Numbered from the stretch's first letter, positions 1 through 31,357 are shown. The stretch: DNA of 44,774 nt from Oscillospiraceae bacterium (GCA_031255175.1 JAIRTA010000058.1:1-44774), one strand, 5' to 3'. The notes: generated by a model not told the origin, from the sequence alone. Program-made: numbers and translations.

Positions 1-1
1 A

Positions 2-142
2 CGGAACCGCGACATCGATAATCTTTGTGTTAAACGTGACCGTGTACTCGTCGGCCGCGTACACAGGCGCGGGCAAAATGCTGAGCATCAACGCCACGGC
101 AAGAAGCCCCGCAAGCGGTGTGCGCAATTTCTTTGACATCAT
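2..142 (-). CDS. 5' part of a secreted protein (runs off the window edge)
   Basis: Not in the ORF track; read by hand as MMSKKLRTPLAGLLAVALMLSILPAPVYA-ADEYTVTFNTKIIDVAVP. Sec signal peptide with a VYA cleavage site and a purine-rich RBS (GAGGAAGGAAAG) upstream. Confidence 0.75.
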   Translation of the reverse strand, partial: MMSKKLRTPLAGLLAVALMLSILPAPVYAADEYTVTFNTKIIDVAVP

Positions 143-354
143 AGTACGCTCACTTTCCTTCCTCTTTCATTTGCTTTCTATCATATTTTGTTCACGCCGC
201 GTTTTTCCCTTGCTTTCTGTCTGCATCCATCATCTCCTCACAAAGGGTCCATTCAAAATTTACCCAAATACGGACTCTGGAGATCTTTGCGTAGAAGTTG
301 GACGGGCTGCCGTGATCGTCTCCCCCTTTCGTCGGCATGTAGCGTCTGCTCCAT

Positions 355-1164
355 CTAAAAGTCTGTATCATACTCCCACGGCTGGCCACCGCAGACACAA
401 CCACCATCAACGCGGTATTCACAGCCGGTGATGTAGGACGAAGCGTCCGAGGCGAGCAGCAGGCACACGCCCGCGATGTCCGCCGGATAGCCGGGACGGC
501 CCAGTGCGATACGGTTGAGAAGGTATTCACTGCGCCCCGGATGCGCCCACGTCGCAGTTGTGAGGTCCGTTTTGATGTGCCCTGGGCTGATGCAATTGGC
601 GCGGATGTTGTACTTTGCCCATTCCACTGCCATAGAGCGCGTCAACGAAAGTAATCCGCATTTTGTTGCGCCGTAAACGGAACACCCGCCGAGAATAGGC
701 CCCGTATTGTGCGAACCGATGTTGATGATGTTTCCGTACCTTTTTTCCTTCATATAAGGCGCGACAGCCTGCGAAACAAAGAATGCACCTTTGAGGTTGA
801 TCGCCATGATTTTATCGTAGGTGACCTCCTCAACATCGACAAGTCCTTCACGTTTGTTGACCCCCGCGCAGTTTACGAGGATATCGATTCCTCCATACTC
901 GGCGGCGACGGCCCTTGTCGCCGTCTCGATGCTCTCGCGCTTTGTCACATCAAGAACAACAGCCACCGCTCTGCCGCCCATGTCTTCAATGAGTTTTTTA
1001 CGCTTGTCCAACGCATCGACGTTTATGTCGCACAGAGCAACAGCCGCACCCGCACCCGCCAGCGCGGAGGCAAGTTCCCCACCGATACCGCCGCCCGCTC
1101 CCGTAAATAGGACGGTTCTGCCCTCAAGCGAAAACATTTTGAGCAAATTTTCTGCTATACCCAT
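355..1164 (-). CDS. SDR family NAD(P)-dependent oxidoreductase, gluconate 5-dehydrogenase/KduD-like
   Basis: TGAGGGIG Rossmann motif, NCAG, catalytic YGATK, C-terminal YITG..VDGG; start MGIAENLL at 1164 with GGAAGGA RBS. Confidence 0.9.
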   Translation of the reverse strand: MGIAENLLKMFSLEGRTVLFTGAGGGIGGELASALAGAGAAVALCDINVDALDKRKKLIEDMGGRAVAVVLDVTKRESIETATRAVAAEYGGIDILVNCAGVNKREGLVDVEEVTYDKIMAINLKGAFFVSQAVAPYMKEKRYGNIINIGSHNTGPILGGCSVYGATKCGLLSLTRSMAVEWAKYNIRANCISPGHIKTDLTTATWAHPGRSEYLLNRIALGRPGYPADIAGVCLLLASDASSYITGCEYRVDGGCVCGGQPWEYDTDF

Positions 1165-1234
1165 TCTATGATCCTTCCCCGGACGGAGACATCCGCCAAG
1201 CGGCCTTCGCGCATACGTCGTCTTCCGTCGATTT

Positions 1235-2119
1235 TTATTTTCCGATTTTGGTGCCCGACACCTTCGCGTAATATTTCGCCAGTGCACTGTGATCGTCCTG
1301 GCCACAACCGTCGGCGTGCAGCGTTTGCAACATTTCCATTACCGACGCGGTGAGCGGCAGCGGCGAACCCACGCCGTGACCCGTATCAAGCGCGTTGCCG
1401 AGGTCTTTGATGTGCAGATCGATTTTGAACCCCGGTTTGAAATTACCGTCAAATATCATGGGAGACTTCGCGTTCATAACAGTTGACCCGGCAAGCCCGC
1501 CTTTAATCGCTTCAAAAACGAGAACGGGGTCTACGCCTGCTTTTTTGGCCAGCGTATACGCCTCCGCAACAGCCGCGATGTGAATGGCAACGACAATCTG
1601 GTTGGCGAGCTTTGTCGTGTTTCCCGCGCCGATTTTCCCGCAATATACAACACTCGACCCCATGTGAGACAGTATGGGCTTGACACTTTCAACAACGGTC
1701 GTGTCGCCTCCAGCCATAATGGCGAGCGTTCCGTCTATTGCCTTTGGTTCGCCGCCTGAAACTGGCGCGTCTATCATTTTTACGCCTTTTTCGGCGCAAA
1801 TTTTTTCGACTTCAACAGAAGCAAGCGGAGCAATAGAAGACATATCAACGAGAATGAGTCCGGGCTTCGCGCCTTCGAGAACACCGCCCGCGCCGCAGAC
1901 CACCGCCTTGACATGCGGAGAATTCGGTAACATTGTGATCACGACATCAGAAACTGCACTTACATCTTTCGCAGACGTACCCGCCTTTGCACCGGCCGCA
2001 ACGACATCGTCTACATTTTCTTTTACAATGTCGAATACTGTCAACTCATACCCCGCTTTAAGCAGATTCTTCGCCATAGGTTTGCCCATAATTCCAAGTC
2101 CGATAAATCCTATTTTCAT
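1235..2119 (-). CDS. garR: 2-hydroxy-3-oxopropionate (tartronate semialdehyde) reductase
   Basis: MKIGFIGLGIMGKPMAKNLLKAG, VITMLPNSPHVK, DAPVSGGEPKAIDGTL, KLANQ, FKPGFKIDLHIKDL and DHSALAKYY all match E. coli GarR signature stretches; GGAGG RBS. Confidence 0.92.
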   Translation of the reverse strand: MKIGFIGLGIMGKPMAKNLLKAGYELTVFDIVKENVDDVVAAGAKAGTSAKDVSAVSDVVITMLPNSPHVKAVVCGAGGVLEGAKPGLILVDMSSIAPLASVEVEKICAEKGVKMIDAPVSGGEPKAIDGTLAIMAGGDTTVVESVKPILSHMGSSVVYCGKIGAGNTTKLANQIVVAIHIAAVAEAYTLAKKAGVDPVLVFEAIKGGLAGSTVMNAKSPMIFDGNFKPGFKIDLHIKDLGNALDTGHGVGSPLPLTASVMEMLQTLHADGCGQDDHSALAKYYAKVSGTKIGK

Positions 2120-2166
2120 CTTAAACCTCCATAAATAATGAGATTTTTCTCTTCGGTCCACTTTGT

Positions 2167-3090
2167 CTATTTTATTGCCAAAACTGCTTTGACAATATGT
2201 TCTTTTGTAATGCCAAAATGTTCGAGCAACTCATTGTAATTATGCGCGCTGCAACCAAAGGTATCTTCAATGCCAACAAACTCAATCGGCTTGCGGGATT
2301 TGCGCAGCACTTCCGCAACCGCGCCGCCAAGCCCGCCGATTACGCTATGCTCTTCCGCTGTGACAACGGCCTTGCAATCGGCAGCAAGCGCAATGATTTT
2401 TTCGTTGTTGAGCGGTTTGATCGTGCTGACATTGACAACCTTAACAGAAACTTTCCCTTCAAGCGCTTCCGCCGCTGCGAGAGCGAGACTTACCGCGTAA
2501 CCCGTTGCAAACACAACAACCTCCTTACCCTCCTTGATCACAAAAGGCTCACCGATTTTGAACGGCTTTCCCTCAGGGGTGACATTGGGATAATCGTTGC
2601 GATTGATGCGCAAATAAACAGGGCCGTTGTAATCTGCTATCACCCGTGTCGCTTCCACCGCTTCGTTGGCGTCGGCCGGGTTGACTACGACCATATTGGG
2701 AATAGCCCGCATAATCGCTATGTCCTCAACGCTTTGATGCGTCGCGCCGTCGCCGAAGTCGGAAAGTCCAGCGGATGAACCAACGATTTTTACATTGAGT
2801 TTTCCTATCGCGATGGTCTGTCGTATCTGATCGTAGGCGCGCCCTGCCGCAAATACGGCGAAGGTGTTGGCAAAGGGAATCTTGCCCATCTGGGCGAGTC
2901 CCGCCGCGACCGAAGTCATATTCGCTTCCGCGATCCCCATTTCAAGATGACGCTCCGGATACGCGAGTTCAAAAAGTTTCCCCATGGTAGACCCGCCCAA
3001 GTCGGCGTCGAGTACAAAGATGTTTTTATTCTCTTCACCGAGTGCCACAAGCGTTTCGCCATATGCCGTTCTTTGGTTCACATAGCTCAT
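2167..3090 (-). CDS. Transketolase, C-terminal (pyrimidine-binding) subunit of a split transketolase
   Basis: GIAEANM, DGATHQSVED, GPVYLR, VTAEEHSVIGGLG; start MSYVNQ at 3090. Confidence 0.92.
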   Translation of the reverse strand: MSYVNQRTAYGETLVALGEENKNIFVLDADLGGSTMGKLFELAYPERHLEMGIAEANMTSVAAGLAQMGKIPFANTFAVFAAGRAYDQIRQTIAIGKLNVKIVGSSAGLSDFGDGATHQSVEDIAIMRAIPNMVVVNPADANEAVEATRVIADYNGPVYLRINRNDYPNVTPEGKPFKIGEPFVIKEGKEVVVFATGYAVSLALAAAEALEGKVSVKVVNVSTIKPLNNEKIIALAADCKAVVTAEEHSVIGGLGGAVAEVLRKSRKPIEFVGIEDTFGCSAHNYNELLEHFGITKEHIVKAVLAIK

Positions 3091-3103
3091 TGTCAATCCC
3101 CCC

Positions 3104-3931
3104 TTACGCTTCAAGCTCATCGAGAGCCTTCCGGTATGTTTCATTCGTCAGAATGCCGTTGTGGAAGCCCACGACGCCTTCGGCAAAGCTGATACCCCTG
3201 CCTTTGATTGTGTGTGCGACAATCACTGTCGGCTGCCCTTCGACTTCGTCGGCAGCGTCGAGCGCGGTGAGAATTTCCCTTATGTCGTGCCCGTCTATCT
3301 CCATGACATTCCAACCAAAGGCTTTCCATTTTTCGGGCAGGGGATTCGTGTCAAAGCGTTCGCAGATCTTGCCCTGTGCTTGCAATGTGTTCTGATCGAC
3401 GATCGCCACAAGGTTATCCGCTTTGAAAACCTTCGCTGCCATAGCCGCTTCCCAAATCTGACCTTCGGCGATTTCACCATCTCCGCAGATCACATAGACC
3501 TTCGCGGGAATTTTGTCTTCTTTCAGTCCGATCGCCATGCCAAGTCCGATGGAAAGTCCCTGCCCAAGAGAGCCCGTTCCCGCTTCAATTCCGGGTGTTT
3601 TGAGAACGTCGGGATGTCCTTGCAGTATAGAACCGATCCCCTTTGTGTGCGCAAGTTCGTCAACAGGAAAATACCCCGCTTCCGCAAGCGCCGAATACTG
3701 CAATATCGCTGCGTGCCCCTTGCTGAGCAGAAAACGATCGCGGTCAGGTTTCTCCGGATTTTGGGGATCGTGATTCATTTTGTGAAAATATAAGGCCGCG
3801 ACTATGTCTGCGGCGGAACCTGAACCGCCGAGATGCCCTGCGTTGCCGATTCCCATACTGATTACCACATCGCGGCGCAGGGTTTGTGCCTTCGCCTTGA
3901 TAGCATCTAACAATTCCTGTGGATAGTCCAT
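3104..3931 (-). CDS. Transketolase, N-terminal (ThDP-binding) subunit of a split transketolase
   Basis: GHLGG, DRFLLSKGHA, QGHP, TGSLGQG, ThDP motif GDGE...N, TIKGRG; GGAGG RBS. Confidence 0.93.
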   Translation of the reverse strand: MDYPQELLDAIKAKAQTLRRDVVISMGIGNAGHLGGSGSAADIVAALYFHKMNHDPQNPEKPDRDRFLLSKGHAAILQYSALAEAGYFPVDELAHTKGIGSILQGHPDVLKTPGIEAGTGSLGQGLSIGLGMAIGLKEDKIPAKVYVICGDGEIAEGQIWEAAMAAKVFKADNLVAIVDQNTLQAQGKICERFDTNPLPEKWKAFGWNVMEIDGHDIREILTALDAADEVEGQPTVIVAHTIKGRGISFAEGVVGFHNGILTNETYRKALDELEA

Positions 3932-4043
3932 AAAATCAACCTCCGTTTCGTCAACACGATCCGCAATAGTATAGTTTGGGTGTCAAAAGTCTCGCCCGTT
4001 GCTTTCCGGGAATTTAAAATTGTGTTCTTGCAGATATTGACTT

Positions 4044-4760
4044 TTAAATTCCCAAATACGCCTTGCGTATATCGGGATTAACCAGCAGTTTCGCGCTATT
4101 GTCGGCCATGACAACTTTGCCTGTTTCGAGGACATAACCTCTGTCGGCAATTTGCAGCGCCTTGACAAGATTTTGTTCAATAATGAGCATCGACGAGCCG
4201 TTGTCTTTCATCCTTTTTAGAATACGAAAAACCTCGTCCACAACGATAGGCGCCAACCCGAGCGACGGTTCATCCAGGATGAGGAGTCGAGGTTCCATCA
4301 TCATTGCACGCCCAATCGCAAGCATCTGCTGCTGGCCGCCCGACAAAGTACCGGCGAGATATTTTTCCCTCTCTTTGAGAATCGGGAACGCATCAAAAAC
4401 CGCTTTTAACAGTTCCTGCCGTTTTGACTTTGTACGCTTTGTGTAAGAGCCGAGAATGAGATTGTCTGTTACAGAAAGATTGCTAAGGATTCCGCGCCCT
4501 TGCGGAATGTGAGCAACACCCATTTCGGCGCGAGAATAGGTGGGTTTTGACGCGAGATCGCTGTCAAACCAGGCAATCGAACCCGACTGAATCTTCACCT
4601 CACCCGATATTGTGCGAAGGATAGTCGTTTTGCCCGCGCCATTAGAGCCGACAAGCGCTACAACTTCTCCTTCGTCCACCGAAAGGCTGACATCAAAGAG
4701 GATCTTCAGGTCGCCGTAACCGGCGCAGACCTTTTCGAGCTTAAGCATTTCCAAATACAT
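4044..4760 (-). CDS. livF: Liv/HAAT-type ABC transporter ATP-binding protein (LivF-like)
   Basis: Walker A GSNGAGKT, LSGGQQQ, LDEPSLGLAP, C-terminal AYLG. Confidence 0.9.
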   Translation of the reverse strand: MYLEMLKLEKVCAGYGDLKILFDVSLSVDEGEVVALVGSNGAGKTTILRTISGEVKIQSGSIAWFDSDLASKPTYSRAEMGVAHIPQGRGILSNLSVTDNLILGSYTKRTKSKRQELLKAVFDAFPILKEREKYLAGTLSGGQQQMLAIGRAMMMEPRLLILDEPSLGLAPIVVDEVFRILKRMKDNGSSMLIIEQNLVKALQIADRGYVLETGKVVMADNSAKLLVNPDIRKAYLGI

Positions 4761-4833
4761 TCCACTCCATCTTCTTCGGAATTCTCACACGATCTCTCAC
4801 TGTCTGTCTCCGAAACATTCAGATCCCGCATCC

Positions 4834-5586
4834 TCATCGGTAATCTTCCCCCAAGTAGGCCCTGATAACTTCGGGTTTTTTCATGACCTCAAGGGGGTTT
4901 CCCTCTGTCATAAAGTGACCTTCTTCCATAACGACTACTCTGCCGCACAGTTTGGTCACGGCGGACATAACGTGTTCGATAAACAGAACGGTTATGCCCT
5001 GCTTGTTAATCTTGCGGACCATGTCCAAGCTTGTTTCCATCTCGCCCGGAGTAAGCCCCGCGAGACACTCGTCAAGCATCAGAAGCCTCGGGCGTGTGGC
5101 AAGCACACGCGCCATGTCGAGCCACTTGCGTTTTTCAATAGGCAGTTTGGTGCATTTCTGTTCCGCAATGTCATCGAACTGCACGAACTTCACAATCTCT
5201 TCCGCCGCTCTATACGCTTCTTTGAGCGTGCGATTATACAACATGGCGATCGTGTAAATGTTTTCAAACACTGTCAGATCCGCGAAGGGTTTTGGCGTCT
5301 GAAACGTCCTTCCCATGCCCAGTTTTACCCTATCGGGTACAGATTGTCCTCTGAGTTCAACCGTGCCACCATCGTCGTTGTAATAGATGATCTCTCCTTT
5401 GTCGTGGATATAAACACCTGTTATCAGGTTGACGGACGTACTCTTGCCACAACCATTCGGTCCAATAAGTCCAAGGATCTCTCCCTCGTATACACAAAAG
5501 CTCAAATCGTTGATAGCATGTACGCCCCCGAAAGACTTATCCACATTTTTCAGTTCGATTATTTTTTTATAGCCTTCAGGCAACAT
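4834..5586 (-). CDS. livG: Liv/HAAT-type ABC transporter ATP-binding protein (LivG-like)
   Basis: [32 protein letters not shown]; ATG at 5586 after GGAGGTGA. Confidence 0.9.
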
Positions 5587-6628
5587 TGTCACCTCCAACC
5601 GCTTTTTTGGAGACGAACCTCGCCTTGATATCGTCAATAATCGAAACGATGCCGTTGGGTTTAAAGAGCACCATTACCACGATCAACAGACCGTAAAGTG
5701 CCCAACCCGCACCACCGCCGCCAAAGCCTTGCAAGTAGGCATTGGAAAGTTCCAGCAGGGGTATCGTGATGAGCGCGCCGACTGTCGGTCCCCAAATTGT
5801 GCCCATGCCGCCAAGGATCGCCACTATGCCGATGCGCACCGACATGTCTTGCGACGCCAACGTGTTTGGGTCGGCAAAACCTGTCTTAAAAACATAGAGC
5901 ATCCCTGTAAACGCCATAATCGCCGAACTGATAATGAATGCCTGCAATTTTACGTTCCGCGATTTCATTCCCAGTGATTCCGCCGCGTCCTGATCTTCAC
6001 AAATAGCTCTCAGATAATACCCGAGCTTGTGGCTATCGATGTACATGATGACGAGCGTAGTAAAAATCATCCATATAAACGCTACGAAATAGAAAGGAAT
6101 ATCCGTGTCGAAATGCAACCCCCAAAGTGTGTTGCCGCTGCGAATTTTAAAAGTGAGGCCGAGCGAACCACCCGTGAAGCGTTCGTAGTAAATCAACAAC
6201 TGTCGCCAAATTGTCGTACAGGCAATGGTTGCTATAGAGAAGAACACTCCGCGAAACCTAAAACACGGCCAGCCGATGACTACGGCGAATAAAATGGCAA
6301 TGGCAACTCCGAGCCACACACTCAACCAGGGGGAAATGCCAAGCGCGGGGATTATTTTTCCGCCTGCCTGCCCGGAACCGGCAAATAGCATAATGCTGGT
6401 ATACGCGCCAATCGAGAAAAAGGTCGATGAGGCCCACGAGGTCTGTTTTCCGTATCCGCCGATGATATTCCAGGCGTTTCCCAGCGCGGCGAAGAAGAAT
6501 ACTTCCATAAGCACACGCGTGAGATATGTCCTGCTTATCACAAATGGAAAAATTAGGCAAATAAGGATGAATATCAGTGCGACAGGATGTTTTTTGATGC
6601 TTGTTAAACTGAAGATATTCTTAATCAT
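5576..6628 (-). CDS. livM: Liv/HAAT-type ABC transporter permease (LivM-like)
   Basis: Multi-TM protein with WNIIGGYG, LRAICEDQDAAESLG, LGGMGTIWGP. Confidence 0.88.
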   Translation of the reverse strand: MIKNIFSLTSIKKHPVALIFILICLIFPFVISRTYLTRVLMEVFFFAALGNAWNIIGGYGKQTSWASSTFFSIGAYTSIMLFAGSGQAGGKIIPALGISPWLSVWLGVAIAILFAVVIGWPCFRFRGVFFSIATIACTTIWRQLLIYYERFTGGSLGLTFKIRSGNTLWGLHFDTDIPFYFVAFIWMIFTTLVIMYIDSHKLGYYLRAICEDQDAAESLGMKSRNVKLQAFIISSAIMAFTGMLYVFKTGFADPNTLASQDMSVRIGIVAILGGMGTIWGPTVGALITIPLLELSNAYLQGFGGGGAGWALYGLLIVVMVLFKPNGIVSIIDDIKARFVSKKAVGGDNVA

Positions 6629-7503
6629 TACGACGCACGTCCTTCCTTTCCGAAAAGTCCGTACGGTCTGAATATCAACACCAGCATCAGCACGACGTTG
6701 ATCGCCGCCTGGGCCAGAAGCACGCCGGCGTATGAGCTTGCCAACGATTCAACCAGCCCGATAATCAGCCCGCCGACAAGTGCACCCTTGATGTTACCCA
6801 GTCCGCCGAGCACCATTGCGGACATTGCTATGGTGGAAAACTGCGCGCCCACTTTGGGTGAAAGCAGGAAGATCGGCGAGATTAGCAACCCGGAAATCCC
6901 TGCGAACACAGTCCCCATAGCAAACGCTGTTATAAAGACAGTACCTGTCTTTATCCCGAGGGATTCAGCCACAACGCGATTCTCACTGGTCGCCCTCATG
7001 GCCCTACCGATATCGGTTGAACTGAGAAACCAATTGACAAATACAGCAAACACCGCCGCCGCCGCAAACGCGATAACTCTCGCTGTAGAAAGCGAGACAC
7101 TTCCAAGCGCGATCGCCCCGTTGCGGAGCTGTTCGGACACGGCCACGCTCTTGAAGTCGGGTCCGAAAATGAGCTGGATAAGGTTTTGTATGATGTAAGA
7201 CAACCCTATCGTCAGCAATATATAGTTGCTGTCACCCTTGCCAATGACCTTCTTAATGGTGCTGGAAAAGAAGATACAGCCCGCGAGATACATTGCCGCA
7301 CCTACCGGCACAAGCAGCCAGTAGGGTAAGCTCCCCTGCGGCATAAGTGAGTACATTGCGTACGTAAAGTAAAGCCCCATAGCCAGAAAGTCGCCTTGAG
7401 CGAAATTGACTATTTTCATCACGCCGTGGATCATCGTTATGCCCACGGCAACCAGCGAATACACGCCGCCGATTAACAACCCGTTGATGATGACCTGAAG
7501 CAT
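6628..7503 (-). CDS. livH: Liv/HAAT-type ABC transporter permease (LivH-like)
   Basis: NGLLIGGVYSLVAVG, VNFAQG, GRAMRATSEN, LGGLGNIKGA, RPYGLFG. Confidence 0.9.
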   Translation of the reverse strand: MLQVIINGLLIGGVYSLVAVGITMIHGVMKIVNFAQGDFLAMGLYFTYAMYSLMPQGSLPYWLLVPVGAAMYLAGCIFFSSTIKKVIGKGDSNYILLTIGLSYIIQNLIQLIFGPDFKSVAVSEQLRNGAIALGSVSLSTARVIAFAAAAVFAVFVNWFLSSTDIGRAMRATSENRVVAESLGIKTGTVFITAFAMGTVFAGISGLLISPIFLLSPKVGAQFSTIAMSAMVLGGLGNIKGALVGGLIIGLVESLASSYAGVLLAQAAINVVLMLVLIFRPYGLFGKEGRAS

Positions 7504-7623
7504 CTTCTATCATTCTCCTCCTTGTGGAGGTGATTTTCCCAGCATGCGATACGCAGCCGGAACAAGTCGCAACACAGCGGGATTCACTGTCGGAATTACA
7601 TACCGCCGGTCGCCGTTAAATTG

Positions 7624-7666
7624 TTCCTTGCGTACGGGTGCGCGGCGCGCGCCCGTACGCAAGGAA
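7624..7666 (-). terminator. Strong stem-loop after the substrate-binding protein gene (mRNA stabiliser or partial terminator)
   Basis: TTCCTTGCGTACGGG...CCCGTACGCAAGGAA inverted repeat directly 3' of the SBP stop; no clear U-tract. Confidence 0.55.
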
Positions 7667-7678
7667 TTCCATTTTCGA

Positions 7679-9013
7679 TTAGAAAGGCTGCATAGTGTCT
7701 GGGTTGAGCAACACGCCCGTCGCAAATTCCTGCGGATACACGCTCGTGGGCTTGCCGTTTTGCCACTGCAGGATGATGGCGCGGGAATCGGTGTTCAGAC
7801 CTGTCGTGTCGTCAAAGTCACCGTAGCCGTTGATGATACCAAACCATTGGCTGTTGTCTTTGTTGAGCTTGCGAAGCTCGTCGCGAACCGCGATCGGATC
7901 GTCGGATTGCGCGTTTTCAACTGCCTCATACGCAAGCATAATTGAGAAAAGCGTCGGCCCGCCTTGTCCCGCAAGAAATTCGTTGTTCTTTTCTTCGTAG
8001 TAGGCGTTCATTTCCATCCAGCCGGCGTTCTCGACAGCACCCTTTTGGTCCCAGCACCAAGCGTCGACGGACGTAAGCCCGTTCACATTGTCTCCGAGAT
8101 CTTTGTAGAGAGACGGCCAGGTCATCGCCGCGCCGCCGCCGATTACGAGCGGGTGATAATTCAGTGTGTTCATGGCCGTGAAGATAAGTTTGAGATCGTT
8201 CGGATACGCACTCGGAAGAATGACGTCGACGCCCGCGTTCTGGATCTTTGTGATCAGCGGGGTCGCGTCTGTAAACGAACTCCCCTCATACCCTTCATCG
8301 GAGACAAGGTTGAGCCCACGCTCCACAACTTGTGTACGCGTATTGTTGGACTGGTCTGTGCCCCAGGCGTCATTGGAATAGAGGAGCCCGAGCTTCAGAT
8401 CTTTGATATCTTTGCCGGTGAGCTTCGCGTATTCGGCGAGGAAGTCAAGCTGCGTGGGAATGAACGAACTCGACGTGGCCGCCGGTTGGAACACAAACGA
8501 ACATCCTTGTTCTGAAACAGCTTTGTTCGCCGCCGCACCCGTGACTGTGGGCACTTTGTACTTTTCAAGTATCGGAAGCATTGTCAGCGCGATGGACGAG
8601 TTGGAGTTGCCTATCGCACACGTATACCCGCCTGCGGAAAGAGCGCGCTCGAGAGGAAGCGTTGCCGTGGCCGCGTCGGATGTGGAGTCGAGAACCTCGA
8701 TATGAATAGGGCGCCCGCCCAAGGAGGGAAAACCGCCAAGTTTTTCGTTGATGTACCACTGTGCCGTTTCAGCTGCGAGAGTGCACTGACGGCCCGATTC
8801 GGCCGTACCACCCGATACGCAGGCATACACAAGGAATTTGACAGGATCGCCTGACGCGCCGGTGTTGCCGGCGCCATTGGCAGGTGTCGACTCATTGGGC
8901 GCCGCGGGAGTTTCCTCCCTTGGTGCCGACGGCACCGTATTGTCCCCCGAACAACCCGCTGCCACGGAAAACGCCATGATCACAACAAGGATCAACGCCA
9001 ATTTCTTTTTCAT
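7679..9013 (-). CDS. ABC transporter substrate-binding lipoprotein (Liv/periplasmic binding protein type 1 fold)
   Basis: Lipobox AAGC after a signal peptide, P/A/N/T-rich linker, NDAWG, and a C-terminal QWQNGK..VYP typical of HAAT-family SBPs; first gene of the permease/ATPase operon. Confidence 0.88.
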   Translation of the reverse strand: MKKKLALILVVIMAFSVAAGCSGDNTVPSAPREETPAAPNESTPANGAGNTGASGDPVKFLVYACVSGGTAESGRQCTLAAETAQWYINEKLGGFPSLGGRPIHIEVLDSTSDAATATLPLERALSAGGYTCAIGNSNSSIALTMLPILEKYKVPTVTGAAANKAVSEQGCSFVFQPAATSSSFIPTQLDFLAEYAKLTGKDIKDLKLGLLYSNDAWGTDQSNNTRTQVVERGLNLVSDEGYEGSSFTDATPLITKIQNAGVDVILPSAYPNDLKLIFTAMNTLNYHPLVIGGGAAMTWPSLYKDLGDNVNGLTSVDAWCWDQKGAVENAGWMEMNAYYEEKNNEFLAGQGGPTLFSIMLAYEAVENAQSDDPIAVRDELRKLNKDNSQWFGIINGYGDFDDTTGLNTDSRAIILQWQNGKPTSVYPQEFATGVLLNPDTMQPF

Positions 9014-9252
9014 AAATGCATCCCCTTTCTATCTTGCGCGACAATAGTAACAACATTGTCTACGTGTCAAAACATTCGCCCGCCGCCCGCCGGCGACTTG
9101 CTCCGTCGCATGTTCCCCGCCTCGCGGGGAGAGGGCGGCAACAGAAAATCTCCACCCCTTCTGCGACAACCGGAACCGCCACTGGTAGACTCACACTTCT
9201 TTTCCAAGTTTTCGTCTTTTCAACTTAGAATACTATATATTTTGCCTCTTAT

Positions 9253-9276
9253 AATTGATCTGACGTCAGATCAATT
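9253..9276. promoter_or_regulatory. Perfect 24-bp palindromic operator
   Basis: AATTGATCTGAC-GTCAGATCAATT, immediately downstream of the -10 box of the ABC operon promoter. Confidence 0.8.
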
Positions 9277-9283
9277 CAGCTAC

Positions 9284-9312
9284 AGTATAGCTTTGTTGCT
9301 TTCAAAAGTCAA
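9284..9312 (-). promoter_or_regulatory. Sigma-A promoter of the ABC/transketolase operon
   Basis: TTGACT (9312-9307), 17-bp spacer, TATACT (9289-9284). Confidence 0.75.
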
Positions 9313-10033
9313 TACACAGTGTGAATTTTTGTGAGCTTTTCCGTCTGTCAACATTGCACCGGACAAACCTGCCCAAGTCGGATTTAGATTTTTCAGCGAT
9401 TCTCTTCACAAAATTATCTCACACCACTCCCCTCCTTATTTCCCCGGTCTCTCGGCCACACGCCGCCCGGAGATCCCTCGGGGTGTCCGCCGCCCGCAGT
9501 CTTTCCTATCCGTCCAGGGCGAGACCATCTGCACAAACGGTCTCCACCGGCGGCCGTTTTGTCTGTACACAAAACAACTGCCCACTCCCGGATGTATCCT
9601 CTCGACCCACACAAACCCGCTGGACCGCAGGACTTTCGACGGTTTCCACACGATTTGCTATGCTATACCCTTTTGAAGCATGCCACAGACGCCAACCACT
9701 TCTTTTTTACCATATATATTTTGCAAAGTCAAGTGGTACACGTGATATTTTTTATATATTTCGATTGAATTAAACGGAAAACACGCTATAAAACGGCACT
9801 TTTGGAAATGCATTCCCTTTTCAAAGCATCTAGACGTGTCATTTTTTATTTCCATTTTATATCGTCCTCGGCGCTCTGGACAGCGTCGGATCCAGCTGGT
9901 AGAATGGGGATGCCAACCCATAGACCATCCGCTCTCTCGGGGATGCCACTGCAAGCGTCTCCTATGTCCATGAAAACGCGCCCGCCGGGCCTCATATGCC
10001 CGGCGGAGAAACACATTGAGGAGAAAGTTACAC

Positions 10034-11194
10034 ATGATAAATAAATGCATTCTGATTCCGGACAGCTTCAAAGGCAGTATGAGTTCCGGCGAGATCTGCT
10101 CCATCATGGAGAAAGCGATTGACCGCTATTATCCGGACGCCAAAATCATCTCCATTCCCGTCGCGGACGGCGGGGAGGGCAGTGTGGACTGTTTTTTGGC
10201 GGCCCTGGGCGGAGAACGCGTCGTCACGACGGTAAAAGGACCGTACATGGAAGACATGGAAGCCTACTACGGTCAGTTGCCTGACAAAACGGCCGTGGTC
10301 GAAATGGCAGCCTGCGCTGGACTTCCCCTCGTCGGGGACAGGCGTGCCGCCGAAAAAACAACAACTTACGGGGTGGGGCAATGTATCGCACACGCGGCGG
10401 CGGCCGGCTGCAAAAAAATCATACTCTGCCTTGGCGGCAGCGCCACAAATGACGGTGGCACGGGCGCGGCGGCGGCACTGGGAATCCGGTTTTTGAACAG
10501 CCGGGGCGAGCGTTTCGTCCCCACGGGCAAGACTCTGCGCGATATCGACCGCATCGATAAGACCGAATTGCTTCCGTCCCTGCGGGACGTGGAGACCATA
10601 GCCATGTGCGATATCGACAACCCCCTCTGCGGCCCGGACGGCGCGGCACATGTCTTCGGACCCCAAAAGGGTGCGGACCCCGCCACGGTGGCGCTGCTGG
10701 ACAGTGGGCTCGCGCATATGGCGGCCGTCGTCAAACGCGACCTCGGCGCGGACATCCTTGATCTCCCCGGGGCCGGAGCCGCCGGCGGCATGGGGGGCGG
10801 CATGGCCGCTTTCCTAAACGCGCGCCTCCAGATGGGCATCGAAACCATATTGGACACCGTCAGCTTTGACAGCCTGTTGAGCGGCGCGGATATCGTATTC
10901 AGCGGCGAGGGAAGAATCGACAGCCAGTCCCTGCGCGGCAAAGTTGTGATCGGTGTGGCGCGGCGCGCGAAATCGGCGGGCGTGCCACTCGTTGTATTGG
11001 CCGGCGACGTCGCCGACGACCTGGGCCCCGCCTATGACGCGGGGGTTTCCGCCATCTTCAGCATCAACCGCGTGGCGGTTCCGTTCAGCGAGGCCAAACA
11101 CCGCAGCAAAAGGGATCTCGCTTGCACCATAGATGACCTCATGCGATACACGACACTCTTCCCGCTCACAGCAACGCCGGCAACCGGTCGATGA
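10034..11194 (+). CDS. garK: Glycerate kinase (GlxK/GarK family)
   Basis: PDSFKGS, PVADGGEG, GGSATNDGG, VFGPQKGA, GAGAAGG, GEGRIDSQSLRGK; ATG at 10034. Confidence 0.93.
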   Translation: MINKCILIPDSFKGSMSSGEICSIMEKAIDRYYPDAKIISIPVADGGEGSVDCFLAALGGERVVTTVKGPYMEDMEAYYGQLPDKTAVVEMAACAGLPLVGDRRAAEKTTTYGVGQCIAHAAAAGCKKIILCLGGSATNDGGTGAAAALGIRFLNSRGERFVPTGKTLRDIDRIDKTELLPSLRDVETIAMCDIDNPLCGPDGAAHVFGPQKGADPATVALLDSGLAHMAAVVKRDLGADILDLPGAGAAGGMGGGMAAFLNARLQMGIETILDTVSFDSLLSGADIVFSGEGRIDSQSLRGKVVIGVARRAKSAGVPLVVLAGDVADDLGPAYDAGVSAIFSINRVAVPFSEAKHRSKRDLACTIDDLMRYTTLFPLTATPATGR

Positions 11195-11972
11195 CGGCCG
11201 CGAGGGCGTGGTCGTCGCAGTCGGGGGCGGCGTAGCGGGCCGCCGCGCGGACCGCCGGGGCGGCGTTCGCCGGGGCAAAAGAGACCGCCGCGCGCAGCAT
11301 GGGCAGGTCGTTTTCCTGGTCGCCAACACAGAAAACCCGTTTGGGCGGAACCGACAGGGCGTCGGCCAGCCAGCACAGCGCCGTGCCCTTGTTGGCCTCC
11401 TTGTGCTGCATCTCCAGCAAGTTCGCGTGGGAGAAGCAGACGTCGTATTGGCCCCCGTACCGCGGGCGGAACCAGTCGCTCAGCGCCCGCAGCATCGCCG
11501 CCTCGCCCACAAACAGCGCTTTCAGCCAGTTGCCCGGAATGTCCGTCAGAGACGGCGCCCGCGCGGCGGAAACCTGGACGGCGGCGAGGTGCGCGCGCGA
11601 CGTCTCGTTGCTTCCGACGACCCAGATCCCCGTCAACAGATGCGCCTCGACGACGACCTCCGGAAAAGCCGCCCGGACGGCGGCGCACACGGGCAAATAA
11701 TCGCTGTCAAGCGGAACGGACCGCAGCACCCGGCCCTCGTCGTAGTCGTAGACGAGCGCGCCGTTGGCCAAGATCACCGGGGCATTCAGCGGGATCGCCC
11801 GCCGGGGCTGCTCGAAGGCCTGGATCGCCCGCCCCGTGGCCACGGTGAACCGCCCGCCCTCCTCGATAAACCGCCGGATCGCGGCCCGGTTTGGTTCCGA
11901 CACCTGCCGCGCCCGGTTGTAAAGTGTGCCGTCCAAATCGGACGCCAGCAAAATATTGTCAAATATTCCCAT
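11166..11972 (-). CDS. Cof-type HAD-IIB family hydrolase
   Basis: DLDGTL motif I, ATGR, NKGTAL, GDQENDLPM. Confidence 0.9.
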   Translation of the reverse strand: MGIFDNILLASDLDGTLYNRARQVSEPNRAAIRRFIEEGGRFTVATGRAIQAFEQPRRAIPLNAPVILANGALVYDYDEGRVLRSVPLDSDYLPVCAAVRAAFPEVVVEAHLLTGIWVVGSNETSRAHLAAVQVSAARAPSLTDIPGNWLKALFVGEAAMLRALSDWFRPRYGGQYDVCFSHANLLEMQHKEANKGTALCWLADALSVPPKRVFCVGDQENDLPMLRAAVSFAPANAAPAVRAAARYAAPDCDDHALAAVIDRLPALL

Positions 11973-28212: not shown

Positions 28213-29286
28213 ATGCGAAAACATTATATCGACAACTTGCGCTGGATGTGTATTCTTTTTTTGTTTCCTTATCACACGCTCATGGTGTACAATACATTTG
28301 GCGAAAGCTTTTACGTCAAAGGAGCAGACGTTCAAATTGCGAGCGTTTTTATCACGGCAATATGGCCGTGGTTTATGCCGCTTTTGTTCCTGATTGCGGG
28401 CGTCAGTTCAGCGTATGCTCTCAAGACAAGGACTTTAAAAGAATATATCACGGAGCGCATATATAAGCTTCTCATCCCACTTTTATCCGGTCTGTTGCTC
28501 CTCGTTCCCATGCAGACCTATTTTGCGGAGGTATTTCACAACGGTTATACCGGCAGTTATTTTGAACAATACATTCTTTTCTTCACAAACCCTACAGATC
28601 TCAGCGGATACCACGGCGGATTCACACCCGCGCATCTGTGGTTTATATTGTATTTATTTGTCATATCCCTTGTCGCCGTCCCCCTCATGTCCGCCAATCA
28701 AAAATCCGGCCAAAAACTGTCTGTGCATAAAATTCCGTTTCCCGCGTTTTTATTGCTCTTCATTGTCCCTATTTTCAGCCAGATGATCTTGGACTTCAAC
28801 GGCAAAAGTGTCGGCGAATCTTTGACTTATTTCTTATTTGGATATTTTCTGATATCGAACGATGTTATACAGGAAAAACTGCAAAAATACCGTTTCTTCT
28901 TGCTGGGCTTTGTCGTGCTTTGTGCAGCGCTCTACATCTTCTTCGTGACGGCCATTGCATACTATCATGAGATTCTCTTTGAAATTCTATATAACCTGTA
29001 TGCATGGACCGCCATCTTGGCTATTTTGGGGTTTGGAAAACAACATCTGGATTTCACAAACCGCACGGCGTCTTATTTGTCAAAATCTTCCTTTTCTATC
29101 TATATTTTTCATCAGCAATGGATTGTGATAACCGCCTACTTCGCCCTGATGTGGACGCAGAACATCCCGTTGCAAATGCTCCTCATCTTGTCGGCAAGTA
29201 CGCTGTTGACCTTTTTGCACTACGAGGTATTTCGAAGATTTTCTGTGACGAGGTTCCTATTTGGCATAAAAACCGCGCGCCGGTGA
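28213..29286 (+). CDS. Acyltransferase-3 family (OpgC/MdoC-like) integral membrane acyltransferase
   Basis: RKHYIDNLR, WFMPLLFLIAG, ERIYKLLIP, HLWFILYLF, SFSIYIFHQ; about 10 TM segments; AT-rich relative to its neighbours. Confidence 0.88.
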   Translation: MRKHYIDNLRWMCILFLFPYHTLMVYNTFGESFYVKGADVQIASVFITAIWPWFMPLLFLIAGVSSAYALKTRTLKEYITERIYKLLIPLLSGLLLLVPMQTYFAEVFHNGYTGSYFEQYILFFTNPTDLSGYHGGFTPAHLWFILYLFVISLVAVPLMSANQKSGQKLSVHKIPFPAFLLLFIVPIFSQMILDFNGKSVGESLTYFLFGYFLISNDVIQEKLQKYRFFLLGFVVLCAALYIFFVTAIAYYHEILFEILYNLYAWTAILAILGFGKQHLDFTNRTASYLSKSSFSIYIFHQQWIVITAYFALMWTQNIPLQMLLILSASTLLTFLHYEVFRRFSVTRFLFGIKTARR

Positions 29287-29287
29287 T

Positions 29288-29317
29288 AAAAAAGCCGGTT
29301 TCATATATGAAACCGGC
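29288..29317 (-). terminator. Intrinsic terminator overlapping the stop of the zinc-ribbon membrane gene
   Basis: Perfect 24-bp palindrome GCCGGTTTCATATATGAAACCGGC (29294-29317) followed by T6 on the minus strand. Confidence 0.65.
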
Positions 29318-29999
29318 GGGCCAGTGCGGCTTGCAGTGGTTTTTTTCGGTCGATGACCAGCATCACCGCGGCGGCGGCGGCACAGGGGATCATCACCAGC
29401 CACGACCATTGGAAGAGGAGATGCCCCACTCTGTACCAGCCGACCGCGCCTTCCACCGACATGGTGAGCAGTCCGCAGGAGGCCAACACCCCGGCGGCCA
29501 GTCGCCAACCTTGCAGGGCCTTGCGCTTGACCAGCGTGCTGACCGCGAGAAAGACCAGCGTCACCGAGATCACAATGGGCAGCGCCAGCGTCAAAAACCA
29601 GGCCCCTTCCAATTGGCTCTCCAACAGCCACAAAAACAGCAGCAGCGCCCCCACGTCGAACGTCACCGCCCGGCGCAACCCCATGCGGCGCGGCCACAGC
29701 GCCAGGGGCAGGCACACCCAGGTGAGCCCGAAGCTTCCCAAAACCACCGCCGACCAGGTGACTCTCTTGTTGTACACGGAGTCGATCAGCAGGCAGATGA
29801 GCGACGCGAACACCAAGATGACCGTCATGACCACGGCGACGAAACGCCGCTCGACCAGGCTGTCGACCGCGTCAACCTTGCGGGGCGCGGCGGTCTTCTC
29901 CGCCGCCCCGGCCAGAGGATTGATCACGGGGCAGCGGCACAGCGGGCAGTCCCGCAGGGCTCCGTCCAATTCGACGCCGCAGTTGACACAGTAAGACAT
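29301..29999 (-). CDS. Zinc-ribbon + multi-TM membrane protein (DUF6320-like)
   Basis: MSYCVNCGVELD...CPLC zinc ribbon, about 6 TM helices, C-terminal RRFHI; GAGGTGGAG RBS. Confidence 0.75.
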   Translation of the reverse strand: MSYCVNCGVELDGALRDCPLCRCPVINPLAGAAEKTAAPRKVDAVDSLVERRFVAVVMTVILVFASLICLLIDSVYNKRVTWSAVVLGSFGLTWVCLPLALWPRRMGLRRAVTFDVGALLLFLWLLESQLEGAWFLTLALPIVISVTLVFLAVSTLVKRKALQGWRLAAGVLASCGLLTMSVEGAVGWYRVGHLLFQWSWLVMIPCAAAAAVMLVIDRKKPLQAALARRFHI

Positions 30000-30046
30000 A
30001 CTCCACCTCTGATTGAATTTCCCCGCCGCCCCGCCGCGCTGTCCCG

Positions 30047-31357
30047 TCAACCGTGATGAGACGCCCCCATCTCGTTGCTCTCGACCCTGACCGGGAGGCC
30101 GATCTTCACCAGCTGCGTAAAAAAGATCCGTTCCACTTGGGGCTGGGGCATGTCACGCGTGAAATTGACCGTGGTGACGCCCCCGTAGCTGACGACGGCC
30201 GCGGCCAGGCGGTTGGTGCGCGGAGGGCCCAATATCATGTCGAACCGCTCCACCAGGGGGCGCATGGCCTCCGGGACCGTTGTCGCGCCCAGATTGGAGA
30301 AGGACATGGTAAACTGCTGCTCCCCCAGTATCTGGTATGCCATTATCAGACTCGCCTTTTTTACAAACAACGGCACGCCGCGCAGCAGCGGATTGTTTTC
30401 TGAGCTGACGTTCATCGCCATCATGGAATTGAGATACTTTGTGTTGACATCTCTGCGCAGCGTATGGTGCACATGTTTTGTGATCTCGTCGAACGAATAT
30501 TCCCCCAGCCCGGGTTCCACGCCCACATTGATGAAGAGAGAAAAATTCCGCAATGTCTTCGAGGGGTAGAACCGGCGCATATCCACCGGCACAGACACTT
30601 TGACGGCCCGGCGCGCGGCGGGGGTCATCTCCCGCTGCACCCGGTGGAGGGCATAGAGCTGCACCGCCACCAGCAGTTCCGTCACCGATACGCCGCGTTC
30701 TCTGGCGGCGGCGCGCAGCGCCTCCGTCGGTATGACGCCGGTTGTCAGATGCATCACCCCGGCGCCCTCGCGGGCGCCCGGCACATGCCAGGCCCTTCGC
30801 TCTCTCCGGGAGCGCACGGCGCTCAGGTCGGCGTGTTTTTTGTAGCTGTCTTCCAGTTCCTCCGGCGTGGCCCCGCGCGCGCAGTCGAGCACGCCGTCCC
30901 CGGCGGGGATGGGATGCCCCCCCAACGCGAGGTACTGCGCCGTCAGCGTTTTCAAAAACACCATGCCGCCGCCGCCGTCCGTGAGCGAATGGAGAAACTC
31001 GACGGCGATCCTTCTCTGGTAATACCGCACCCGAAAATGAAAATATCCGTTTTCTTTCTCCCGTATGACCATGCAGGGGTTGCGCACATCCTCCTGCACG
31101 CACGGCATACCCGCGTTGTCCTCGATGTAATACCAAAACAGCCCCCGCCGCAGCCTGCTTTTGATGTGGGGGAACCTCGGCAGCACCGCGGCGAGCGCCG
31201 CTTGCAGCCTCACGGGGTCCACTTCCTCATGCAGCGTCGCGGACAGGCGGAAGATCGGATGCCACCGGGCCGTCCGCACGGCGGGATAAATCTTGGCCGC
31301 GTTATCGAGCGCGTACCAGCGCTTGTCCGGAAAAGCGGATGTAAACTGCGTGGTCAT
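30047..31357 (-). CDS. Alcohol acetyltransferase-like / condensation-domain CoA-dependent acyltransferase
   Basis: WYALDNAAKIYP, RLRRGLFWYY, catalytic HSLTDG (HxxxDG), VPVDMRRFYPSKTLRNF, FSNLG; start MTTQF at 31357 after AGGAG. Confidence 0.82.
   Translation of the reverse strand: MTTQFTSAFPDKRWYALDNAAKIYPAVRTARWHPIFRLSATLHEEVDPVRLQAALAAVLPRFPHIKSRLRRGLFWYYIEDNAGMPCVQEDVRNPCMVIREKENGYFHFRVRYYQRRIAVEFLHSLTDGGGGMVFLKTLTAQYLALGGHPIPAGDGVLDCARGATPEELEDSYKKHADLSAVRSRRERRAWHVPGAREGAGVMHLTTGVIPTEALRAAARERGVSVTELLVAVQLYALHRVQREMTPAARRAVKVSVPVDMRRFYPSKTLRNFSLFINVGVEPGLGEYSFDEITKHVHHTLRRDVNTKYLNSMMAMNVSSENNPLLRGVPLFVKKASLIMAYQILGEQQFTMSFSNLGATTVPEAMRPLVERFDMILGPPRTNRLAAAVVSYGGVTTVNFTRDMPQPQVERIFFTQLVKIGLPVRVESNEMGASHHG

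Follow-up and report, generated by a model that had tools for sequence, protein, structure and literature searches.

The operon and its gene products

The window analysed here (44,774 nucleotides; GCA_031255175.1, JAIRTA010000058.1:1-44774) is an entire 44.8 kb contig of an Oscillospiraceae bacterium from a termite-gut metagenome, the genome of which amounts to 2.5 Mb in 159 contigs and is 97.4% complete. On its minus strand, between positions 355 and 9013, nine tightly spaced genes form one operon, with starts that were refined against homologues and are all ATG. The operon brings together an ATP-binding cassette (ABC) importer of the Liv type, a transketolase (TK) split over two genes, a tartronate semialdehyde (TSA) reductase of the GarR type and a dehydrogenase of the short-chain dehydrogenase/reductase (SDR) family, and across a non-coding spacer it faces a divergent gene for a glycerate kinase. 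It is the metabolic role of this gene set that we consider here. The features are as follows.

355-1164, minus strand: SDR-family dehydrogenase (adh_short_C2, 5.5e-64, Pfam); the open reading frame (ORF) is open to 1305, with the likely ATG at 1164
1235-2119, minus strand: GarR-type TSA (2-hydroxy-3-oxopropionate) reductase (NF008592, TIGR01505, 1VPD)
2167-3090, minus strand: TK C-half (TKC) with the Pyr and C domains (Transket_pyr and Transketolase_C, Pfam); ORF open to 3144
3104-3931, minus strand: TK N-half (TKN) with the PP domain that binds thiamine diphosphate (ThDP) (Transketolase_N, 1.8e-49, Pfam)
4044-4760, minus strand: LivF/UrtE-like ABC ATPase (ABC_tran; LivF model 249.6 bits, under the cut-off of 441)
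4834-5586, minus strand: LivG/UrtD-like ABC ATPase (ABC_tran, BCA_ABC_TP_C); ORF open to 5637
5576-6628, minus strand: LivM/UrtC-like permease (BPD_transp_2)
6628-7503, minus strand: LivH/UrtB-like permease (BPD_transp_2)
7623-7667, no strand: G+C-rich hairpin (20 bp stem) in the spacer that separates livH from the gene of the binding protein
7679-9013, minus strand: Peripla_BP_6 lipoprotein, substrate-binding protein (2.5e-35, Pfam; lipobox AAGC)
9029-10015, no strand: non-coding spacer with promoter-like sites and a palindrome (sequence analysis)
10034-11194, plus strand: divergent class I glycerate kinase (PF02595, 8.8e-138; TIGR00045); ORF open from 10016

Every gene that the initial annotation had named is present where it had been placed. 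Its observation that the cluster lacks a dehydratase, a keto-deoxy-glucarate (KDG) aldolase of the GarL type, a carboligase, a sugar kinase and an isomerase is borne out as well, as none of these was found by Pfam/NCBIfam annotation of the cluster.

The reductase passes the cut-offs of two equivalog models (NF008592, 464.5 against 397 bits; TIGR01505, 410.6 against 340.75 bits). Its best match in the Protein Data Bank (PDB) is the Salmonella TSA reductase 1VPD (405 bits, E = 1.5e-120), followed by 3cky at 224 bits. By these curated models the protein is assigned as a TSA reductase (EC 1.1.1.60), and NADH-dependent reduction of TSA to D-glycerate is predicted. Neither glyoxylate carboligase (Gcl) nor Hyi above their cut-offs, nor any member of the HpcH/HpaI (GarL) family, was found in the 97.4% complete genome, so that GarR is left there without another known source of TSA. 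The divergent kinase belongs to class I (PF02595, 459.7 bits; TIGR00045, 419.8 against 168.45 bits) and scores 307.5 bits with NF007401 (cut-off 625) and 304.9 bits with NF007668 (cut-off 686), the 2-kinase/3-kinase equivalog models.

The only NCBIfam model that the SDR matches above its cut-off is that of the glucose 1-dehydrogenase subfamily (226.5 bits, cut-off 215), which is a broad one. Its structural matches in the PDB are, in order, 4j2h, the gluconate 5-dehydrogenases 6le3 and 1vl8, and HpsO (8wwf). In both the SDR and GarR the second β-strand ends in an aspartate, which we take to indicate a preference for NAD in the two enzymes.

With the LivJ/K subfamily model NF011933 the substrate-binding protein reaches 35.9 bits, the cut-off being 477. 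It is not a LivJ/K orthologue, in agreement with the initial annotation, which had proposed that the importer would carry a sugar acid rather than amino acids. The protein has the Peripla_BP_6 fold, since its predicted structure (pLDDT 83) matches structures of that family; the closest solved structure is 8WCH (phmmer E = 4.6e-23, Foldseek E = 9.6e-30, TM score 0.74-0.82, 23% identity). Assignment of the ligand from the structure of the binding protein was rejected as indecisive because the ligands of the fold neighbours are mixed. The contexts of 13 distant homologues (39-52% identical) were also rejected as a guide to the ligand: they are mixed, give no single answer and include a TK in 0 of the 13. 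Among them are an IlvD/EDD dehydratase with an iron-dependent alcohol dehydrogenase and LacI, a DRL oxidoreductase with an aldehyde dehydrogenase, a 2-hydroxyacid dehydrogenase, a xylose-isomerase-like TIM barrel and an allantoate amidohydrolase-like protein. As a group these contexts suggest hydroxy acids and sugar acids.

The conserved gene association and the variant transketolase

The subfamily of the binding protein is tight, with 77 database proteins that are 39-84% identical to it before a drop to 24%. A scan with the binding protein, using one genome per species, yielded 32 loci (designated by L numbers), which were mapped by tblastn, ORF clustering and Pfam/NCBIfam. In ten of the 16 loci with a binding protein that is at least 57% identical, the genes TKN, TKC and GarR together with an SDR lie downstream of the transporter (L006, L007, L008, L009, L010, L012, L015, L016, L017 and L030). 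Four further loci (L011, L014, L019 and L020) end at contig edges, and the core is therefore present in ten of the 12 close loci that can be assessed. Co-clustering in other genomes, which the initial annotation had put forward as a check, is thus confirmed. The SDR orthologues in ten related loci are 64-88% identical. Cultured carriers of the cluster are Caproiciproducens faecalis, Caproiciproducens sp. R1, Marasmitruncus massiliensis and Firmicutes bacterium FC7, in addition to many metagenome-assembled genomes.

Most related loci add a Zn-dependent dehydrogenase (Zn-ADH) of the medium-chain dehydrogenase/reductase (MDR) family, usually in the interval between livF and the TK genes, and, upstream of the binding protein, a regulator of the GntR/FCD type. 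No remnant of the regulator or of the Zn-ADH was detected in the window by tblastn. The window carries a trimmed version of the cluster, as does Marasmitruncus, which also has no Zn-ADH. At least one SDR or MDR dehydrogenase is found in 15 of the 15 loci that contain TK and GarR, and the invariant core across loci consists of a dehydrogenase, the variant TK and GarR, fed by an acid importer.

A glycerate kinase adjoins eight of these 15 loci. It is of class I in five (the window, L006, L007, L008 and L030), while in the other three (L009, L010 and L012) it belongs to the unrelated MOFRL/DUF4147 family. The interchange of two unrelated glycerate-kinase families within the same cluster is good evidence that the product is glycerate, the end product that had been predicted in the initial annotation.

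Related cores are also found with other transporters, in four loci that were reached through the TK. In L080 a GntR gene, a TRAP (tripartite ATP-independent periplasmic) transporter DctQMP, Zn-ADH, TK, GarR and an FGGY gluconokinase-like gene are followed further on by a gnd-like gene. L082 contains GntR, GarR, TK, SDR, a TctCBA transporter of the tripartite tricarboxylate transporter (TTT) family and Zn-ADH, and L081 contains a nickel-pincer isomerase of the LarA type, Zn-ADH, TK, GarR and a second Zn-ADH. In L083 the genes present are GarR, TK and GntR, and an SDR lies at a distance of 6 kb. The TK-GarR core is consequently seen with three acid-uptake systems: the Liv-type ABC importer, TRAP (L080) and TTT (L082). 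TRAP and TTT systems carry carboxylates, and relatives of LarA racemise or epimerise 2-hydroxy acids. The presence of these transporters, of GntR/FCD regulators and of a LarA-type isomerase beside the core fits an acid substrate, as had been suggested from the window, and we propose that the ligand of the importer is a sugar acid.

Two additional observations concern the surroundings of the cluster. L006 (2484-18617), from Caproiciproducens faecalis, has a TK-GarR module on either side of a single transporter. The two modules come from two sub-clades, their C-halves being 87% and 57% identical to that of the window, and one side is extended by two GntR genes, a Zn-ADH and a glycerate kinase. 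In termite-gut Defluviitaleaceae and Oscillospiraceae the cluster is directly adjoined by a gene (L016, 10215-11363; L017, 16216-17364; L014, 215-1363) that scores 662-668 bits as a D-galactonate dehydratase equivalog, the cut-off being 311. This dehydratase may belong to a neighbouring sugar-acid operon or to a regulon larger than the cluster.

The best structural relative of the TK C-half is the split TK of PDB entry 6YAJ (9.3e-80). Compared with Escherichia coli TktA, the catalytic and ThDP-binding residues His26, His66, His100, Asp155, Asn185, His261, Glu411, Asp469 and His473 are all retained. Of the residues of the phosphate site, Arg358, Ser385 and Arg520 (E. coli numbering) are likewise present, while His461, the phosphate-binding histidine, is replaced by a serine within the motif GSSAGLSDFGDGATHQ. 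The phosphate-binding set (Arg358, Ser385, His461 and Arg520) of a canonical transketolase (EC 2.2.1.1) is therefore incomplete. The loop leading up to Asp469 reads GSSAGLSDFGDG in 16 of 16 members of the clade, compared with the canonical xTHxGxxVGEDG, and usual split TKs, including the Carboxydothermus enzyme, read A-T-H-A-G-x-T-V-G-E-D-G at this place. Replacement of His461 by serine and the altered loop, with both arginines retained, fit a donor with an anionic distal end other than phosphate.

Phylogenetic analysis of 42 C-halves by maximum likelihood places the 16 variants in one clade with support 100/100 and a stem of 0.76, which is nested inside the canonical split TKs and lies apart from the ordinary split TKs of the phylum. 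The latter are common: a search with the C-half found split TKs in 334 of 401 genomes of the phylum. Among the best 30 TKC matches across these 401 genomes, with flanks of 1.5 kb, GarR adjoins five of the five TKs with the motif GSSxGxSDxxDG and none of the 25 with the canonical xxHxGxxxGEDG (Fisher p = 7e-6, a value that is overstated because kin are not independent). In a collection of 1.84 billion proteins, 16 of the 150 top-ranking cluster representatives contain the motif, and the proteins that bear it are named, where at all, only "transketolase family protein". Quite possibly, if not quite probably, these enzymes form an unrecognised TK subfamily that uses a free carboxylate in place of a sugar phosphate and would cleave a 4-dehydro-pentonate to TSA and a C2 unit.

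The only other TK pair of the genome is located on contig C87 (L042, 467-2343). It is extremely divergent (branch length 2.85), and its loop, GTDPGVTAAFNGGTHM, has an asparagine at the position of Asp469 and no His461. Since this second pair is present on another contig, the TK of the operon is an extra copy. Apart from the variant clade, at least nine of the 150 best split-TK representatives have no equivalent of His461 and carry other loops, for example GFYSGFSDSADG and GSSAGPTQGPDG (P0083, P0087, P0116, P0121, P0165, P0185, P0188, P0214 and P0230). The split-TK family may hold several further specialised subfamilies.

Origin and regulation of the gene block

The G+C content is 0.52 over positions 356-9028 and 0.64 across the remainder of the contig. 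At third codon positions it is 0.54-0.66 in the operon genes, 0.73 in the glycerate kinase and 0.85-0.88 in the neighbouring host housekeeping genes, which on this contig encode isoleucyl-tRNA synthetase (IleRS), RluD, DivIVA, MiaA, MutL, MnmG and release factor 1 (RF1). A nucleotide match of 83-85% to Marasmitruncus massiliensis, with a match to Caproiciproducens as well, spans exactly 356-9028 and ends there. The full-length binding protein is present in one of 41 genomes, which is that of the window itself, and in none of its 40 relatives; four other apparent matches among the 41 genomes consist of the signal peptide and linker only. On this evidence the operon is judged to be a foreign block that was acquired horizontally, and the block to have been transferred as a single unit of exactly nine genes. 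The glycerate kinase occurs in none of six genomes of the same genus and in five of 25 genomes overall, its own genome counted. Because it lies outside the block, has an intermediate third-position G+C content and is patchily distributed, it is regarded as accessory but separately acquired.

The possibility that the contig is chimeric where the low-GC operon meets the high-GC DNA was considered and rejected. The Logan contigs of run X1 give no sign of it, which is weak evidence as X1 is probably the source sample. These contigs cover 30 of 30 bins, with a depth of 16-19 on either side; in the spacer, across which short overlapping pieces extend, the depth is 12-16. One contig of the same run, over 352-3736, extends upstream with 35 letters that are unlike the window and start with GAGCCCGCGCGGGCTC (a hairpin), and the depth drops from 18.5 to 10.3 over window positions 1-434. 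The 3' edge of the transferred block (window position 352) seems to be the exact point of difference between strains.

Promoter-like sites for the operon are found on the minus strand of the spacer at 9312-9284 and 9070-9041. Just downstream of the first of these lies a perfect 24 bp palindrome (9253-9276, AATTGATCTGACGTCAGATCAATT). Its 16-base core has two matches among 83 loci, both of them copies of the window, and is absent from the loci of other genomes. The spacer contains no regulator gene, and relatives carry a GntR/FCD gene at the equivalent position; it is possible that the palindrome serves as the operator of a host regulator in place of the missing GntR. The hairpin downstream of the binding-protein gene is very stable, with 13 G-C pairs in its 20 bp stem. 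ABC operons often hold a stabiliser after the binding-protein gene, which raises the level of binding-protein mRNA. A search for regulatory RNAs gave no Rfam match within 1-11400 at E values up to 1.

Elsewhere on the contig, a second low-GC patch (0.517) at 28213-30050 encodes an Acyl_transf_3 acyltransferase and a DUF6320 protein amid high-GC housekeeping genes. Positions 31550-37276 encode a protein of 1908 residues with a glycoside hydrolase family 2 (GH2) β-galactosidase core at residues ∼610-1730, the ∼600 N-terminal residues of which have no Pfam match.

Proposed pathway, alternatives and known systems

On the whole, and by a narrow measure, we consider it probable that the horizontally acquired operon catabolises a small aldonic acid, most simply a pentonate, by a TK route to TSA. 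The acid would be imported by the Liv-type ABC system and oxidised by the SDR at its (ω-1) hydroxyl group, next to the terminal CH2OH, to a 4-dehydro-pentonate; in most relatives the Zn-dependent MDR dehydrogenase would perform an oxidation as well, perhaps on an epimer. The product would be a ketol donor with a carboxylate rather than a phosphate at its far end. From it the split TK would pass the C4-C5 glycolaldehyde unit to an aldose phosphate of the pentose phosphate pathway, for example glyceraldehyde 3-phosphate, and set TSA free. GarR would then reduce TSA to glycerate and in doing so re-oxidise the NADH from the SDR step, after which the glycerate kinase would produce phosphoglycerate for glycolysis. 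As the oxidation by the SDR and the reduction by GarR cancel, such a route would be redox-neutral, and since no carbon would be lost and a single ATP spent it would suit a fermenter.

The chain length and the 4-keto intermediate are deduced purely from stoichiometry. Transketolases take C1 and C2 off a ketol, and what remains is released as an aldehyde. If the freed piece is TSA (C3), the donor would be 2,3,5-trihydroxy-4-oxopentanoate, a pentonate oxidised at C4, and by this arithmetic C5 is the only fitting length. From a C6 acid the piece released would be a C4 aldehyde acid, and from a C4 acid it would be glyoxylate; neither product fits the GarR equivalog and the glycerate kinases. TK donors have the 3S,4R configuration, a general rule that points to D-arabinonate and/or its C4 epimer L-xylonate, although any particular named pentonate is less probable than the mechanism itself. 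By analogy with IdnO/IdnD, which handle gluconate/idonate, one epimer might be the substrate of the SDR and the other that of the Zn-ADH. A pathway of this kind had been put forward in the initial annotation, which is partly supported: its logic is well backed by comparative genomics, and its substrate and chemistry are predictions from sequence.

A number of points weigh against this reading. To our knowledge, carboxylate donors other than hydroxypyruvate are not established for bacterial TKs, and every chemical step, the acceptor and the redox coupling have been read here from gene content. The altered loop gains an aspartate, which differs from what would naively be expected for carboxylate binding. 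The nearest solved binding protein binds L-pyroglutamate, and the ligands of the fold neighbours (pyroglutamate, amino acids, keto acids, aromatic acids, urea and fatty acids) include no sugar acid. The SDR, described in the initial annotation as gluconate-5-dehydrogenase-like, does resemble such enzymes (6le3, 1vl8) but misses all three Gno/IdnO models, scoring 194.5, 183.7 and 182.5 bits for cut-offs of 279, 369 and 408, respectively. Similarly, the divergent glycerate kinase of that annotation is present and of class I, but it is located outside the block homologous to Marasmitruncus, with ∼1 kb of non-coding DNA between it and the operon, and seven of the 15 TK-GarR loci have no glycerate kinase in the DNA that was fetched. 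Two close loci, L013 (with a Zn-ADH only) and L018 (with the binding protein alone), have no TK and GarR nearby, and orthologues of the Zn-dehydrogenase and of GntR were found nowhere in the genome of the window. Finally, the gluconokinase-like and gnd-like genes beside the core in L080 could indicate hexonates.

With a hexonate as the substrate, L-idonate or D-gluconate would be oxidised to 5-keto-D-gluconate, from which TK would release tartaric semialdehyde (C4) for reduction to a tetronate by the GarR homologue. Cleavage of 5-ketogluconate by a TK has been proposed in plant tartrate synthesis, and the pairing of Zn-ADH and SDR mirrors that of IdnD and IdnO. The IdnD model reaches 193-199 bits on the Zn-ADH, which has the IdnD structure 6dkh among its matches, gluconate 5-dehydrogenase structures rank among the top matches of the SDR, and the D-galactonate dehydratase adjacent in L016 and L017 points in the same direction as the genes of L080. 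We nevertheless consider a hexonate unlikely, as the reductase is a GarR equivalog well above the cut-off with 1VPD by far its nearest structure, the two unrelated glycerate kinases that were recruited would have no role on a C4 product, the core loci contain no tetronate genes of the OtnK, OtnC or OtnI type, and every Idn equivalog cut-off is missed. A C4 chain, that of L-threonate or D-erythronate, would be oxidised to 3-oxo-tetronate, a ketol with a hydroxyl group at the cleavage carbon, and split by TK into glyoxylate and a C2 unit, with GarR acting on glyoxylate or on TSA formed otherwise. A 2026 study describes an SDR whose substrates, oxidised at C3, are L-threonate and longer sugar acids (PMC12994016), and the title of one of its sections names dihydroxyacetone as a potential product. 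Conversion of glyoxylate to TSA would, however, require a carboligase, of which there is none in the cluster and none over the cut-off in the genome; the glycerate kinase would be left without a substrate, and 3-oxo-tetronate is a β-keto acid prone to decarboxylation. This makes a C4 acid rather improbable, and neither the C6 nor the C4 version could be completed with the genes present.

A C3 acid is to be regarded with the same scepticism as the C4 acid. Here glycerate or a relative would be oxidised to hydroxypyruvate, an irreversible, CO2-releasing TK donor, with GarR and the kinase handling the rest. Hydroxypyruvate is the classic artificial TK donor and a carboxylate, the altered distal loop could suit a very short donor, and all enzymes of the cluster can be written into such chemistry. 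Yet for glycerate the kinase alone would suffice, which would render TK, SDR and Zn-ADH superfluous, carbon would be lost as CO2, and both distal arginines, needless for a short donor, are retained. Least probable of all, and very improbable in itself, is that the genes share no pathway and that an amino-acid or amide importer, a spare pentose-phosphate TK and glyoxylate/glycerate genes are merely co-located. All parts do come from very common families, as the frequency of split TKs in the phylum illustrates, and the importer is annotated in the sources as a branched-chain amino acid system. Against mere co-location stand the linkage kept across families and with three transporter types, the occurrence of GarR beside all five variant TKs and beside none of the 25 canonical ones, the movement of nine genes as one block, and the presence of another TK in the genome.

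If the TK route from a pentonate to TSA is correct, it would be the third TK-based catabolic route, after those for apiose and sulfoquinovose, and the first for sugar acids. Known bacterial sugar-acid routes proceed via dehydratases and aldolases or via kinases and decarboxylases. The proposed one would be free of dehydratase and aldolase, carbon-conserving and redox-neutral at the cost of one ATP in strict anaerobes, and would account for the use of oxidised sugars, such as ascorbate breakdown products and the products of acetic acid bacteria, without an external electron acceptor by fermenting bacteria in the guts of termites, poultry and humans. It would also correct the widespread annotations "branched-chain amino acid transporter" and "transketolase family protein", the importers in question carrying a sugar acid, and provide a natural TK for carboxylated ketols to biocatalysis. 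Since the cluster occurs in cultured strains, this proposal can be put to a direct test.

A paper on split TKs in biocatalysis (PMC13663882) does not contain the terms gene cluster, genomic, apiose, sulfoquinovose or phosphate-binding. In the accessible parts of two 2026 papers on sugar-acid enzymes in the Journal of Biological Chemistry, tartronate appears solely in the role of an inhibitor or a product. In the open full texts that were searched, which leave out most subscription journals, no paper was found that connects a transketolase with TSA or with the catabolism of pentonates; this agrees with the initial annotation, which knew of no described pathway with such an enzyme set.

In the L-idonate pathway the Zn-dehydrogenase IdnD and the SDR IdnO meet at 5-keto-D-gluconate. 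The likeness lies in the pairing of MDR and SDR dehydrogenases on an aldonate in most of the related loci; here, however, the Idn cut-offs are missed, there is no gluconokinase in the core, and the keto acid would be cleaved instead of being re-reduced. The lower glucarate/galactarate and glyoxylate pathways of E. coli proceed through GarL or Gcl, then GarR/GlxR and GarK/GlxK. The conversion of TSA via glycerate to phosphoglycerate by a GarR equivalog and a class I kinase would be shared with them, while the source of TSA would differ, with a transketolase in place of dehydratase, aldolase and carboligase. Like the binding protein of the operon, SAR11_0655 (8WCH) is a family member outside the LIV (leucine, isoleucine and valine) type, and it binds L-pyroglutamate, a small carboxylate (PMC11485210). 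It is found in the context of a 5-oxoprolinase, and at 23% identity its ligand is not transferable. The split TK of Carboxydothermus hydrogenoformans (6YAJ/6YAK) has the same two-chain architecture as the enzyme of the operon but contains the canonical loop ATHAGLTVGEDG with its histidine, compared with GSSAGLSDFGDG.

Carter et al. reportedly described in 2018 the catabolism of D-apiose by a transketolase route (AptAB). A figure legend in PMC13753588 refers to apiose catabolism by "one transketolase route". The apiose system resembles the present one in that its catabolic operon encodes a split TK alongside dehydrogenases and an ABC binding protein; it differs in having a kinase, a phosphorylated donor and dihydroxyacetone phosphate as the product, and no GarR or glycerate kinase. 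Sulfosugar isomerases, sulfoacetaldehyde reductase, apulose kinase and apiose/apiitol dehydrogenases were found neither in the window nor in the 15 TK-GarR loci.

In the sulfo-TK pathway of anaerobic Firmicutes a two-subunit TK acts on a ketose that bears a non-phosphate anion at its far end, with glyceraldehyde 3-phosphate as the acceptor of the C2 unit. The aldehyde that is formed is removed by an NADH-dependent reductase, and the substrate itself is not phosphorylated by a kinase. The breakdown of sulfoquinovose by this pathway, with the SqwGH transketolase, is treated in three papers (PMC9594981, PMC11659671 and PMC12890257). Both systems would have in common a dedicated split TK, an anionic, non-phosphate far end of the donor, a reductase acting on the aldehyde and no substrate kinase. 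Whereas the sulfo-TK pathway involves a sulfonate, a ketol made by an isomerase, two rounds of TK and excretion of the product, the route proposed here would involve a carboxylate, a ketol made by a dehydrogenase, a single round of TK and assimilation via GarR and glycerate kinase.

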